Shown: piece after piece, positions 25,837 to 29,733 of the stretch | How the letters are laid out: the number at the start of each line of letters is the position of its first letter | How positions within the stretch are numbered: position 1 is the first letter of the stretch | Assembly: GCA_022705945.1 (NCBI GenBank) | Contig: JAKJDL010000006.1 | Location: 13,196-77,195, forward strand | Source of the DNA: Candidatus Omnitrophota bacterium | GTDB taxonomy: Bacteria; Omnitrophota; Omnitrophia; Omnitrophales; Aquincolibacteriaceae | Reading direction: 5' to 3' | DNA length: 64,000 bases | Notes under the pieces: generated by a model | Told to the model about the DNA's origin: nothing | The model's database searches: none | Seen by the model: the letters and a program-made list of their open reading frames with translations, nothing else | Position numbers and translations under genes: made by a program

Positions 25837-26964
25837 TTACTCTTTTTGTTTTTGATCTAATTCGACAAAATATTTCCCGAATACTTCCGCCAGCTTCACC
25901 GGAACGGCATTCCCGACCTGCCTTGCCTCAGAAGTAATTCCGGTACCGTAGAATTTATAGTTGTCTGGAAATGTTTGGAGCCTGGCTGCCTCGCGTATGG
26001 AAATCGCACGATTTTGAGTCGGATGAACAAACCTTCCGTTAGAAATCGAAACGCATTTACAGGTCAGTGTCGGAGACACCTTTTTCCACCACATCCGTCC
26101 ATACGTATCGCTGTGTTTTGTGGGATGTCTTAAGCGACATGGCACTCTGTCCTGCTGCGGAATATCCCTATGACTTCCGCCATTTTTAGGAGTGCCCTTT
26201 ATTCTCTTTGAATTTTCCGGTGACAGTTTGGGAACATGATGATTAAAGAATTTTGGGCTGTTCCCTCCCGATTTAATCGGTGGTAACGGCGATGGCTTGT
26301 TAAAGGCTTGCTCGACGGTCACAAAATCTATCTTCCCAGGCCCATGTGTTATTGGCGGAAACATTAGTTTTTTTACCTGTTCTTCGGAAACCTCTTTTTT
26401 TGCTATAAGTATGAAACGTTTTCTCCTTTGGGGCACCCCATAGATAGCCGCATCAATAACATCCTCACCAACGGAATAATGATTCTTTTTTAAGAAGCTT
26501 TTGAGACGCCGATATGAAGAGCATTGGGATTTTTTAAATCCGGGAACATTTTCGATGAAGAAGTAATCGGGCAAACGCTTGAATTTTTTTACGACACGAA
26601 GCATCTGGGATAACAGATCTTTACGGTCATCCTTATGGCCCTTCAAAACGTTTTTCTTATTCTGAGCGCTAAAGGGCTGGCACGGCGCGCATCCGGCTAC
26701 AACTATTTTATCTTCATTTTTCGGGGCAAGACATGCCCAGACATCCTCGCTTTTAACATCTTCGACCGACATTCCCCAAAAAGTCGCGGGGATATTTTCT
26801 TTATTATTTTCTGCATAGGTTTTCCCAAACGCTAGGTCTTTGTCGATGCCGAGACGAACATCGATCCCAACATTTCGAAACCCGCGAGTTAAACCTCCGG
26901 CTCCGCAGAAAAAATCAACCGCTATTATTTTACCTTTAGACTTTTGACTACTTTCGCTACACAT
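25837..26964 (-). CDS. dcm: DNA (cytosine-5)-methyltransferase
   Basis: 375 aa. Motif I IIAVDFFCGAGGLTRGF, motif IV GCAPCQPFS, motif VI FIENVPGF, motif VIII QRRKRFILIA. C-terminal target-recognition region. Confidence 0.9.
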   Translation of the reverse strand: MCSESSQKSKGKIIAVDFFCGAGGLTRGFRNVGIDVRLGIDKDLAFGKTYAENNKENIPATFWGMSVEDVKSEDVWACLAPKNEDKIVVAGCAPCQPFSAQNKKNVLKGHKDDRKDLLSQMLRVVKKFKRLPDYFFIENVPGFKKSQCSSYRRLKSFLKKNHYSVGEDVIDAAIYGVPQRRKRFILIAKKEVSEEQVKKLMFPPITHGPGKIDFVTVEQAFNKPSPLPPIKSGGNSPKFFNHHVPKLSPENSKRIKGTPKNGGSHRDIPQQDRVPCRLRHPTKHSDTYGRMWWKKVSPTLTCKCVSISNGRFVHPTQNRAISIREAARLQTFPDNYKFYGTGITSEARQVGNAVPVKLAEVFGKYFVELDQKQKE

Positions 26965-27362
26965 TTACCCACATCCTTCTTTATTTGAAAATCCCAGAAC
27001 CGAAACACCTTCCAACCTTGCTTCCGCAATGTTTTATTAACGAGTTTATCGCGTTCAATGTTGGCTTTAATTTTTTCGTTCCAGAATCGTTTATTAGTTT
27101 TGAACCTATGGCGACTGGTCTTGCCATACTTATAACCGTGCCAAAAGGAGCTATCACAAAAAATCGCTGTTTTGTTTTTCGAATTAACAAAATCTGGTTT
27201 TCCGAAAATCGCGCAATGTTTTCTATAAACAACCCGCTGACGCCTTAGTTCCGCTTCGAATATGCGCTCAATGATAGAGCCCTTGGATCGGATACGCGAC
27301 ATGTTATAGGAAATTTGAGCTTGGGAACGCAACATTGGCCTTTTAATCTTCCTCGGCGCCAA
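26925..27362 (-). CDS. vsr: very-short-patch repair endonuclease
   Basis: 145 aa. Conserved Vsr core SKGSIIERIFEAELRRQRVVYR ... GKPDFV ... KTAIFCDSSFWHGY ... RDKLVNKTLRKQGWKVFRFWDFQIK. 3' end overlaps the dcm start by 40 nt. Confidence 0.85.
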   Translation of the reverse strand: MAPRKIKRPMLRSQAQISYNMSRIRSKGSIIERIFEAELRRQRVVYRKHCAIFGKPDFVNSKNKTAIFCDSSFWHGYKYGKTSRHRFKTNKRFWNEKIKANIERDKLVNKTLRKQGWKVFRFWDFQIKKDVGKCVAKVVKSLKVK

Positions 27363-29733
27363 TTGCGCCTGTCGGATTTTCTACCACCATTGACTGCCTG
27401 CCTAGAATGCGCACGATAAACAGGCTGATTTGCGCATAAGATGCCGATGCTTGTCTTACTATATTTTCACTTTCGCTTAAGTTCTTTTTTGCGCGTTGCC
27501 AAAGTGAAACTGCAAATATGAGAAGGCTGACAATATATTGCTTCTCAATAATCGGGTCTTGCCTAAGCGATCGATTTCGAAGGATGAAATCAATATAGTG
27601 TTTGTTCGCCATATTCACATAAACAACAATGTGTCCGTCCGGATCCGGTTCGATTGCAAAGCCATCGTCTTCGGTCATTTGAAAACGAGTGTATTGTTCA
27701 TCATCTTTTTCAACTTTTACATATTTAGGCAGATTTAAATTTGGCCTTGCTGCGAATCTGGGTGGTTCCTGTTCACATTCTTCTTTGGGCGTTTTTGATT
27801 TTTCCGGATTGTCCGGAGGCAGCGGGTTTGTCGCGGGCTTCTCTATAATTTTTAATTTAAAATTCAAGGCCAACCGCATACTGCGTTGAAAATCCATCAC
27901 ATCAGAAAAACCTATGGACCCTTGCAGTTCTTCTCCTACGCATAGGCTTTCGGGTGCGATAATTTTGAATTTTGCTAAACCGTCAGACAGGGAACAAACG
28001 CAAGAAATCATTTCCGGAGAAACTACAACCTTCCCTTTTTCTCGAATTCTGCTCAGATAATCGTTATTCGCATCTGTAATTGCGGTAATTTCTCTAATCC
28101 CTCCCGGATATATTGTTATTTCTCCGTCCTTTATGCCTTTCTCAAGATTAAGGATAGTAGGAAATCTTTTACCTTCAAACCTTCCCTTCTTCCCTCCGTG
28201 CATAGTGCGCAGCTTTTTCATCAAGGCTCCGCCCAGTCCAAAAAGCTGCGCAAGCGTTGGGTCAGAATCCATCATTTTCCCCAGAATTTCCTCTATTTCC
28301 TGTGTGTCCGTAGCTATGTTTTTGATGTTTTCTTCATGAAAAAGCCTGTTTAATTCCTTAATGCCCGAATGATTTTTAATAGCATCTTTAAGTTCTGCCA
28401 TTATTTTTTTTGCGGCAGGATGTTTTTTCTTCATGCGATCACGCGCTGTTGAAAAAACCAAATGAGGCAATTGCTTCGCCATATTTGTGCAGTCTACAAC
28501 AACAAGCATACGCCCCCGCAGAGCCGCAAAATTGATGTCCGTAAAAAAATACTGGTCCTCCGTATGATGAACTTGACCGTTTCGAACATACATGACCCCT
28601 ATTTTCCCTAACCAGTTAACATGCGCTTTGAAAGGTAGTGCGTTAACAACAAGGTTACCTATACCCGGGAGGTTAAGATTGAAGCTATATCCCTCATTGT
28701 ATAAATAACGTCCCTCTTCATCCTCGGGATCGTCTAACCTAACATCTGTCCCAGAAAAAGTTCTTTCCCATGTTCCTTCTCTTTCAACCCTGGTATCGCG
28801 CAAACGAACGGGAAGGCAACAGGAGAACATGCATTGCGATAACGCGTTATTTAAACCAAGTTCAACGCTCCGCGCGCCGGGTCCCATATCGTAGTCGTAC
28901 AATTTGATATAAGTTCCAAACCGCAAGCACGTGGAGTACAGCTCGTCTTTTGTTGTGGGCAACAATGGCATGCTATCTGCGTTAAAGGCCGCTATCTTTT
29001 TTTGTGGAGCAAAATACTCTATTATCGGCAAAACTTCGGTACCTTTCGGATCGCGAAGACGCACAAAAGTAAAACCCCACAGCTCATCCTCTTTTATTTT
29101 TCTCAAAGCGGGTGCGCGCCTAGAAATGATTAACTGACTCATTTTTTCACCGCAGTATGAAAGAGCTGCAGATCCTCCCATATTATATTTGCCTTGGACA
29201 AATGCTATTTTTTCTTTATTGTCCCGTCCCAAAGAAACAAAGGTGCTCCCAAATCGGTGTGGGGGCTGGCCTTCCCCTTGATCAATAATTTCATAACAAG
29301 GCATTCTTTTGGTTCCCGTAACTATAATTTGGATGTTTTCTGCTAAGGCTGTCCTTTGACTGCGCGCTAAATTTCCAATATTACCTTCCGAGACGTTAAA
29401 AAATCTACTAACCGCTTCCCGCATTGTTTTAGGAGCTTTTTCAGAAGAAGGAACTATATTTTTTTCCCAACAAGCCCGCATCAAAACTGCATCTATGCAA
29501 TTAGTCACTTTCTCGGCCATAGCCGGTATCGGGTCTGCGGCTTGGGCTCCAATGCGATCCCAGTTTCTTTCTTCTTGGTTATAAGGCCGCCAATTGTTTG
29601 GGTCTTTCATCAAAGGATGCGACTCAATGATCTCCAGTGCTTTTTTTTCATTTGGTGCTTTGGCCAATGCCAACGCAAGGTCCTTAAATGAACTTTGTGT
29701 GAGTATTTCATCACTAGGACTATGGTTTTTCAT
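27343..29733 (-). CDS. 796-aa protein with N-terminal GHKL (HSP90/MORC-like Bergerat-fold) ATPase domain; candidate restriction/defence effector co-operonic with vsr-dcm
   Basis: N-box EKVTNCIDAV (ExxxNxxDA), G1 DQGEG, G2 IAFVQGKYNMGGSAALSY (compare HSP90 GQFGVGFYSAF). About 560 aa of uncharacterised sequence downstream. 3' end overlaps the vsr start by 20 nt (translational coupling). Confidence 0.75.
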   Translation of the reverse strand: MKNHSPSDEILTQSSFKDLALALAKAPNEKKALEIIESHPLMKDPNNWRPYNQEERNWDRIGAQAADPIPAMAEKVTNCIDAVLMRACWEKNIVPSSEKAPKTMREAVSRFFNVSEGNIGNLARSQRTALAENIQIIVTGTKRMPCYEIIDQGEGQPPHRFGSTFVSLGRDNKEKIAFVQGKYNMGGSAALSYCGEKMSQLIISRRAPALRKIKEDELWGFTFVRLRDPKGTEVLPIIEYFAPQKKIAAFNADSMPLLPTTKDELYSTCLRFGTYIKLYDYDMGPGARSVELGLNNALSQCMFSCCLPVRLRDTRVEREGTWERTFSGTDVRLDDPEDEEGRYLYNEGYSFNLNLPGIGNLVVNALPFKAHVNWLGKIGVMYVRNGQVHHTEDQYFFTDINFAALRGRMLVVVDCTNMAKQLPHLVFSTARDRMKKKHPAAKKIMAELKDAIKNHSGIKELNRLFHEENIKNIATDTQEIEEILGKMMDSDPTLAQLFGLGGALMKKLRTMHGGKKGRFEGKRFPTILNLEKGIKDGEITIYPGGIREITAITDANNDYLSRIREKGKVVVSPEMISCVCSLSDGLAKFKIIAPESLCVGEELQGSIGFSDVMDFQRSMRLALNFKLKIIEKPATNPLPPDNPEKSKTPKEECEQEPPRFAARPNLNLPKYVKVEKDDEQYTRFQMTEDDGFAIEPDPDGHIVVYVNMANKHYIDFILRNRSLRQDPIIEKQYIVSLLIFAVSLWQRAKKNLSESENIVRQASASYAQISLFIVRILGRQSMVVENPTGAIGAEED

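Follow-up and report, generated by a model that had tools for sequence, protein, structure and literature searches.

The DNA stretch analysed here, termed the window, comprises 64,000 nucleotides (nt) of a Candidatus Omnitrophota bacterium (assembly GCA_022705945.1, contig JAKJDL010000006.1, positions 13,196 to 77,195). Its list of open reading frames (ORFs) displays three minus-strand genes in a row: a gene for a 796-residue, paraMORC-like ATPase of the GHKL superfamily (27343-29733, ATG start), vsr, encoding a 136-residue Vsr-type mismatch endonuclease (26925-27335), and dcm, encoding a 375-residue C5-cytosine DNA methyltransferase (25837-26964). A previous annotation made from the DNA letters and their translations (the sequence-only reading) had placed the whole operon at 26925-29733, an interval that spans the GHKL gene and vsr only, since dcm extends to 25837. 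Of the two gene overlaps that it described, the 40-nt one between the vsr 3' end and the dcm start (26925-26964) is seen directly in the DNA and is real, because methylase motif I (FCGAGG, residue 19) has no start codon other than ATG 26964 ahead of it. The 20-nt overlap between the GHKL and vsr genes is doubtful, because it requires a TTG start at 27362 (ORF listed as 26925-27362, 145 residues), whereas ATG 27335, located 7 nt past the GHKL stop codon and preceded by GAGGA/AAAGG, yields a 136-residue product in agreement with the called homologues (133-139 residues) and with an identical NCBI protein (P0265, 136 residues). These two genes are probably tightly spaced, without overlap. All three ORFs are intact, and every residue invariant in the GHKL family is kept. 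Upstream of the GHKL ATG, a TATAAT box and an AAAGGA Shine-Dalgarno sequence are visible by eye; a scan for promoters and terminators returned counts at or under the shuffled expectation and is uninformative.

The N-terminal part of the 796-residue protein harbors the motifs of the Bergerat ATP-binding fold, and their conservation was evaluated in an alignment of 34 members of its family (all coordinates of this gene refer to the minus strand). Motif I (EKVTNCIDAV, residues 74-83, 29485-29514), of the ExxxNxxD type, contains the invariant E74, N78, and D81. In motif II (DQGEG, residues 151-155, 29269-29283), of the DxGxG type, D151, G153, E154, and G155 are invariant, together with the adjacent Q156. 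Motif III (GKYNMGGSAALSY, residues 181-193, 29155-29193) corresponds to an ATP lid of the GxxGxG type, with Q180, G181, and G186 invariant. The segment GTYIKLYDY (residues 273-281, 28891-28917), with invariant G273 and K277, would represent motif IV by analogy with the GTxIxL of Hsp90 and MORC. The four motifs that characterize the GHKL superfamily can hence be assigned to residues 74-81, 151-155, 181-186, and 273-277, and the predicted fold of the domain is the Bergerat alpha/beta sandwich. Further downstream, the S5-domain signature GVMYVRNGQVHH (residues 379-390, 28564-28599) has G386 and Q387 invariant, while N385 and H389, as well as C415 beyond it, are kept in at least 90% of the aligned members. 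This signature sits where MORC proteins have the S5 motif GhXhhpXXRhl (PMC2292703), but the invariant Q387 replaces the arginine. Other invariant residues include D414 and R431 and, in the C-terminal part, P525, T553, D554, and N707.

The 796-residue protein has no match in Pfam, even at E <= 10, or in NCBIfam, and nothing meaningful was retrieved from the PDB sequences with either the single sequence or a 34-sequence profile. Seven of the 34 homologues match Pfam HATPase_c_3 (PF13589, best 4.6e-6), the window protein itself being unmatched. The GHKL assignment is thus founded on family conservation, on these seven matches, and on the fold comparison. The sequence-only reading had called the Bergerat motifs clear; they are present and invariant, but they are not clear to standard tools, as Pfam, NCBIfam, and PADLOC all remain blank.

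The predicted structure begins with an N-terminal strap and the GHKL domain (~60-300), followed by an S5/transducer-like domain (~300-435), the two forming a GHKL plus S5 module, and by a long helix (439-497). The C-terminal half is composed of an immunoglobulin (Ig)-like β-sandwich (~525-630), a disordered linker, and a small alpha/beta and helical-hairpin domain (668-783). The β-sandwich, of IPT/TIG or Rel-homology-like type (27844-28161), carries the invariant T553-D554 pair (ITDANNDY). The last domain, a small β-sheet with a long helical hairpin (27385-27732), carries the invariant N707 within VNMxN and is probably a constitutive dimerisation domain. A Foldseek search against the whole PDB agrees with the fold comparison, and none of the solved structures is a close relative (best E of 9e-9, TM-score normalised by the query <= 0.30); the conserved C-terminal 280 residues display a fold unlike other GHKL C-termini. 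Hsp90 and MORC are closer structural matches than MutL, and the C-terminal dimerisation/endonuclease domain of MutL, with its DQHA(X)2E(X)4E motif, is not present in the protein. The Hsp90/MORC-like character proposed by the sequence-only reading is therefore right at the fold level, and its remark that no recognisable nuclease lies beyond the ATPase holds for both sequence and fold: the C-terminal part, for which a search of nuclease or DNA-binding folds had been suggested, is made of the Ig-like sandwich and the helical hairpin and has no nuclease fold.

The family of this protein is large. The window protein has the same sequence as "hypothetical protein BWY42_00335" from Candidatus Omnitrophica bacterium ADurb.Bin277. 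Its full-length relatives exceed 440 clusters at 90% identity in a word-indexed search, and an exhaustive profile search yields 3,575 representatives at 50% identity (E <= 1e-3), 1,415 of them at E <= 1e-30. At least 569 matches are found among one-genome-per-species contigs, from many bacterial phyla and from archaea, and they are annotated everywhere as hypothetical proteins. A plasmid collection contains nine members, all with this same annotation, and a phage collection none. The patchy distribution of the family suggests lateral transfer. In one locus (L055, 10368-11552), a truncated paralogue of 363 residues, reduced to the ATPase part, lies 4 nt downstream of a full-length member.

The second gene of the operon is recognised by Pfam as Vsr (PF03852, 6.9e-14, 51.9 bits for a cutoff of 27) and scores slightly below the cutoff of the NCBIfam model (TIGR00632, 94.1 bits for 97.85). 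Its alignment with E. coli Vsr (1cw0, 2.4e-12) indicates that the equivalents of D51 and H69 are kept (GKPDF/FWH versus GRPDF/FWH). Residues C66, H71, C73, and C117 of the E. coli enzyme, which form its structural zinc site (1VSR and 1CW0 structures), are replaced in the window protein by S, Y, Y, and F, respectively. This loss extends to a whole subfamily: the sequence FCDS(S/A)FWH (FCDSSFWH in the window) occurs in ~95 of 101 sampled Vsr clusters (P0265-P0365), with the catalytic Asp and His kept. Judged from these sequences, the zinc-less Vsr represents a conserved subfamily rather than a decayed protein. E. coli has dcm first and vsr second. The order is reversed in the zinc-less subfamily, in which vsr always lies ahead of dcm and overlaps it, mostly by 28-40 nt (in L082, the called genes overlap by 4 nt); the vsr-before-dcm order pointed out by the sequence-only reading is thus genuine and kept across this subfamily. 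The third gene product matches PF00145 (3.1e-48) and TIGR00675 (138.6 bits for a cutoff of 100.65). It possesses motifs I, IV, VI, VIII, IX, and X (FCGAGG at residue 19, PCQ at 94, ENV at 138, QRR at 179, TFPD at 331, and GNAVP at 351), and its PDB matches are DNMT1, M.HaeIII, and M.HhaI. In the operon, only Vsr and Dcm match PADLOC models, those of type II nicking endonucleases and methylases.

The genomic surroundings of the family were examined in 80 genome loci (numbered with the prefix L), whose sequences were translated, their neighbours clustered, and the representatives named with Pfam, the GHKL proteins being ordered by similarity (hmmalign). The type of methylase tracks the GHKL clade: Dcm accompanies clades 8 and 9, and a methylase with an SPPY motif accompanies clade 4. 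In clades 8 and 9, which include the window protein and cover 17 loci at 30-81% identity, a 5-methylcytosine (m5C) methylase is directly adjacent in 15; the exceptions are L085, where the contig ends within the vsr ORF, and L049, which has no methylase. The order GHKL, Vsr, Dcm is seen in nine of the 15 Dcm-adjacent loci and in the window, and another five loci possess a canonical vsr further downstream. The look-up of GHKL-Vsr-Dcm relatives covers 39-79% identity to the window protein. The closest of them (L082, 79%) continues with a gene coding for an HATPase_c_3 domain fused to a Ymh domain, as does L081 (79%), in which vsr was overlooked by the gene caller yet is present. In L084 (57%) and L086 (43%), neither a second GHKL nor an HNH gene accompanies the three genes, which are followed in L086 by genes resembling a cyclic oligonucleotide-based antiphage signalling system (CBASS). 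In L087 (39%), Dcm is convergent and a 654-residue HATPase_c_3 gene is present, and in L085 a 666-residue HATPase_c_3 gene lies upstream. In L092 and L093, a GHKL protein of 794 residues, which scores 582 bits against the family profile, is encoded together with Vsr, Dcm, and an HNH_2 protein whose gene is convergent. The betaproteobacterial locus L066 contains the minimal GHKL-Vsr-Dcm set of the window, followed by housekeeping genes, an independent occurrence. Five clade-8 loci have the order GHKL, Dcm, HATPase_c_3+Ymh, Vsr, the Vsr being canonical, unlike the zinc-less one of the window; in a sixth (L015), the first three genes are present and no vsr was detected. L063 and L072 likewise pair the GHKL gene with dcm and no vsr. 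The linkage to a methylase, the point on which the sequence-only reading had made its proposal depend, is therefore conserved in this part of the family, and the outcome that it had named as fatal, a housekeeping protein with no methylase linkage, did not arise.

These neighbourhoods bear on the role of Vsr. The zinc-less vsr-dcm cassette also occurs with no GHKL gene at all, behind a trio of other genes in L089-L091, L094, and L095, and behind an integrase in L096, where a convergent ORF of 260 residues lies downstream. Because the cassette recurs behind such unrelated gene sets, Vsr is a generic companion of the methylase and not of the GHKL protein, the latter occupying a variable restriction slot. 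Vsr as the dedicated nuclease partner of the GHKL protein was considered and rejected as the main interpretation, since zinc-less Vsr-Dcm pairs occur with other upstream genes in the absence of GHKL. The trio (at ~1150-5000 in each of the five loci) encodes proteins of 643-647 and 286 residues, both without Pfam match, and a DUF6339 protein; it is a further uncharacterised candidate for the slot that a restriction gene would hold in an m5C system.

The same data weigh on the view of the locus as a repair module, in which the GHKL protein would act as a mobile counterpart of MutL and stimulate Vsr, as MutL does in E. coli, so that a mobile dcm would bring along its own very-short-patch repair kit. 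Against this view, the family pairs with Dcm where vsr is missing (L063, L072, and L015) and with SPPY methylases where there is no Vsr, it often occurs with no methylase, and the zinc-less Vsr-Dcm cassette is also known without GHKL. Moreover, the canonical vsr of clade 8 is found ~2.7 kb downstream, beyond two other genes, and the protein itself is structurally nearer to Hsp90 and MORC than to MutL, with neither a MutL-type C-terminal domain nor a DQHA motif. A repair module is accordingly considered quite unlikely.

Outside clades 8 and 9, the partners differ. In clade 4, a convergent N6_N4 methylase is found, and all 20 of these methylases carry SPPY. This motif is typical of N4-cytosine methylases. 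A PIN or DndB gene often overlaps the GHKL start in this clade. Among the sampled loci, the gene abutting or overlapping the GHKL start encodes a PIN protein in L003, L006, L007, L013, L014, L019, L031, L039, and L045, a DndB (DGQHR) protein in L029, L042, L055, L057, L065, and L069, and a protein of ~338 residues without Pfam match in L030, L040, L050, L061, and L074; a convergent SPPY methylase often lies downstream in these loci. The association with m5C that the sequence-only reading put forward is thus upheld in clades 8 and 9 but is not a property of the family, given clade 4 and the loci of the remaining clades, which mostly lack a methylase recognised by the models.

Such loci lend some weight to another explanation, that the GHKL gene is an independent element, either a stand-alone defence or abortive-infection ATPase or something unrelated, which shares an island with an orphan Vsr-Dcm pair without being coupled to it. 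Many family members indeed have no adjacent methylase, the Vsr-Dcm cassette behaves as a module that can have different neighbours, and islands gather unrelated systems, such as the CBASS-like genes next to the L086 module. Against this, the adjacency, the common strand, and the near-zero spacing are kept over 30-81% identity and several phyla, and the type of partner follows the GHKL clade, as expected of co-evolving partners and not of chance neighbours. Independence of the GHKL gene therefore appears unlikely. Both the repair and the chance-co-residence explanations fit the clade-wide data less well than a restriction-modification reading.

The operon lies in a low-GC island. The GC content is 42-45% over ~26.0-31.0 kb, versus 50-56% elsewhere in the window, and a tRNA-Met gene identified by ARAGORN (25366-25442, plus strand) flanks this segment, the gap between dcm and the tRNA being only ~0.4 kb. 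Two plus-strand genes of the island diverge from the module: an HTH_17/excisionase-like ORF (29824-30204) with a weak PADLOC match to mad1 (9e-5), and a DUF3800 protein gene (30358-31269) with a weak match to PDC-M04A. Directly downstream of dcm, a minus-strand ORF with an XRE-type helix-turn-helix (25650-25836, MDDLKIFSFGATVGRKRQKLGLS...) is broken by a stop codon, as seen by eye, and could be a pseudogene on the border of the island. Directly upstream of the tRNA-Met gene, two tandem copies of a 63-nt unit are followed by a further 15 nt (25234-25374); each 63-nt copy starts with ATTCGGCGCGGGGTG, a sequence that runs into the 5' acceptor arm of the tRNA gene. The 5' end of the tRNA gene seems to have been partially duplicated here. 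Beyond the island, a run of plus-strand ORFs (31620-33816) with prepilin-type N-termini discerned by eye (e.g. GFTLIEVMV) probably corresponds to type IV pilin or pseudopilin genes and marks the return to the GC content of the core genome. Homologous modules are found in defence islands. The L086 module (4362-7696) sits beside genes for Lipase_3, patatin, and SMODS/AGS_C (CBASS-like) proteins, and that of L088, on the Hymenobacter plasmid NZ_CP110137 (4730-11433), is found among integrase, SIR2, DUF262, and PAPS-reductase-family genes. Homologous loci also adjoin apparent Hsd and DUF262 genes, as judged by eye from the translations.

The interrupted ORF and the short distance to the tRNA also enter into a third alternative, according to which the window copy is the decayed remnant of a four-gene system, the fourth gene being a second GHKL/HEPN or an HNH gene, with methylation and repair kept and restriction lost. 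A fourth gene is indeed present in L081, L082, L085, L087, L092, and L093, and it is absent from every ORF of the window; downstream of dcm, only the ~0.4 kb with the broken XRE-type ORF separates the operon from the tRNA. The state of the operon itself does not resemble decay, however: its three ORFs are intact, with all invariant residues kept. Moreover, the minimal set occurs independently in L066, and L084 and L086 also lack a second GHKL or HNH gene; because of this recurrence, the three-gene form may be a stable configuration. Decay is held to be quite unlikely.

Taken together, these data favour, with a probability of about 60%, the reading of the locus as a compact, horizontally acquired restriction-modification-type module, located in a low-GC island next to tRNA-Met. 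The exchange of partners, with clade 4 pairing with SPPY N6_N4 methylases, supports its restriction-modification character. The low GC content, the tRNA adjacency, and the homologous loci near CBASS-like, SIR2, DUF262, and integrase genes indicate a mobile and defence context. Furthermore, the accessory nucleases and second GHKL proteins of the relatives match the published paraMORC operons with DCM, VSR, MORC, and HNH genes (PMC2292703, PMC3710099). In such a module, Dcm would methylate the host DNA at cytosines of a specific context, and Vsr, translationally coupled to it through the 40-nt overlap, would nick the T:G mismatches that result from the deamination of 5-methylcytosine, leading to their repair to C:G. 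The 796-residue protein would hold the position that normally belongs to a restriction component. It may form a dimer held by the helical domain at its C-terminus; upon ATP binding, the GHKL domains at the N-terminus would close into a DNA clamp, as in Hsp90, MutL, and MORC, and the Ig-like domain might contact DNA or a partner. This putative clamp would act on DNA devoid of the Dcm mark. In the relatives, cleavage, of DNA or RNA, is probably supplied by the adjacent HNH protein or by the second GHKL protein, in some cases fused to Ymh/HEPN. The window copy would then represent an incomplete form or else a minimal one that has no dedicated nuclease, like those of L066, L084, and L086, and in which the clamp blocks the DNA or hands it over.

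Several results weigh against this restriction-modification reading. No nuclease domain was detected in the 796-residue protein by sequence or fold searches, so that it cannot be called a restriction endonuclease, and no second GHKL, Ymh, or HNH gene, nor any paralogue of the family, was found among the window ORFs, whereas most close relatives have such a partner. About half of the 80 sampled loci have no methylase recognised by the cluster HMMs, so that a linked methylase is evidently dispensable for the family. In PADLOC-DB 2.0.0, 0 families match the 796-residue protein at E <= 0.01, and a literature search for an experimental study of its family retrieved only VcSduA, of different architecture. 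In the window, a consensus scan flagged no promoter upstream of the operon, and neither an att-type direct repeat of the tRNA-Met 3' end nor an integrase was found in the island, whose borders therefore rest on GC content. As to the sequence-only reading, its observation was essentially right, once corrected for the first overlap and for the coordinates, and its interpretation is partly supported: the conserved linkage to Dcm is real, but the role of effector that it gave to the GHKL protein, like the mechanism, is at most putative, given the lack of a nuclease fold and the extra GHKL (HEPN-fused or plain) or HNH proteins of most relatives, which the window lacks.

A more specific and rather improbable version of the mechanism is restriction without nuclease. 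Here, an ATP-driven MORC/Hsp90-like clamp would read cytosine methylation, m5C in the Dcm-linked clades and probably N4-methylcytosine in the SPPY-linked clade, and would trap or condense invader DNA that lacks methylation, or else license any nuclease at hand. If true, a nuclease-free clamp of this kind would be a prokaryotic counterpart, and possibly an ancestor, of eukaryotic MORC-type epigenetic silencing. If the 796-residue protein is merely accessory to a nuclease missing here, the window copy is minor by itself. The family as a whole nonetheless deserves attention, as a large group of bacterial and archaeal proteins without a Pfam, NCBIfam, or PADLOC model. A prediction of 2008 gives paraMORC GHKL ATPases a working part in immunity of the restriction-modification kind and sees in them the prokaryotic roots of the MORC proteins of eukaryotes. 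The clade-specific pairing with a cytosine methylase provides a concrete, clonable candidate for testing this prediction, and, as a nuclease fold is lacking, the way in which foreign DNA would be harmed becomes a more pointed question.

Compared with known systems, the locus shares with the type II m5C restriction-modification systems carrying a V gene (REBASE), and with E. coli dcm-vsr, a C5-methylase with complete motifs that overlaps vsr, and it has a third operon gene where a restriction enzyme is usual. It differs by the order vsr then dcm, by a Vsr without the four zinc ligands, and by a gene in the restriction slot without a nuclease fold; no cognate endonuclease with a PD-(D/E)xK, HNH, GIY-YIG, phospholipase D (PLD), or other nuclease fold accompanies the methyltransferase. 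The eukaryotic MORC2/3/4 and SMCHD1 and the Hsp90 family exhibit only 10-15% sequence identity with the 796-residue protein. Their CW, coiled-coil-insert, and hinge regions are absent from it, an Ig-like sandwich and hairpin C-terminus being found instead, and its gene sits in a prokaryotic methylase operon. Filing the protein under MORC proper was rejected, as its S5 signature reads G379-VMYVRNG-Q387-V-H389, with the invariant Q387 where an arginine is expected and the largely conserved H389 where an aliphatic residue is expected. VcSduA, a Shedu protein composed of GHKL and DUF4263 domains, is likewise a GHKL ATPase in a defence-island context, but carries a C-terminal PD-(D/E)xK nuclease, whereas the 796-residue protein has none (PMC12137116).

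The closest parallel is found in the paraMORC proteins. MORC and paraMORC1-5 were described as prokaryotic proteins that combine GHKL and S5 domains and are encoded, together with cytosine methylases and Vsr, in predicted restriction-modification operons (Iyer, Abhiman & Aravind 2008, PMC2292703), so that the concept of a GHKL-DCM-VSR operon is not new and dates from that work. Ymh was subsequently recognised as a HEPN domain that occurs in fusion with paraMORCs near restriction-modification genes, and the fusion was proposed to be a second-line RNase resembling PrrC/RloC (Anantharaman et al. 2013, PMC3710099). This fusion (HATPase_c_3 plus PF09509) is a protein distinct from the 796-residue one; it is encoded by a neighbour gene in L081, L082, and clade 8, and is absent from the window. 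The window operon also differs from those published in 2008 in having no helicase, no nuclease of the restriction-endonuclease fold, no HNH protein, and no second GHKL protein. It shares with them the cytosine methylase and Vsr, the HATPase_c_3-type GHKL and HNH proteins added in its relatives, and the patchy distribution in islands. paraMORC1, in particular, co-occurs with a MORC gene and a methylase, and sometimes with HNH endonucleases (PMC2292703); among the relatives of the window locus, a second HATPase_c_3 gene is present in L081, L082, L085, L087, and clade 8, and an HNH_2 gene in L092 and L093, while the window has Dcm only. The family of the 796-residue protein most resembles paraMORC1, whose published description it fits.

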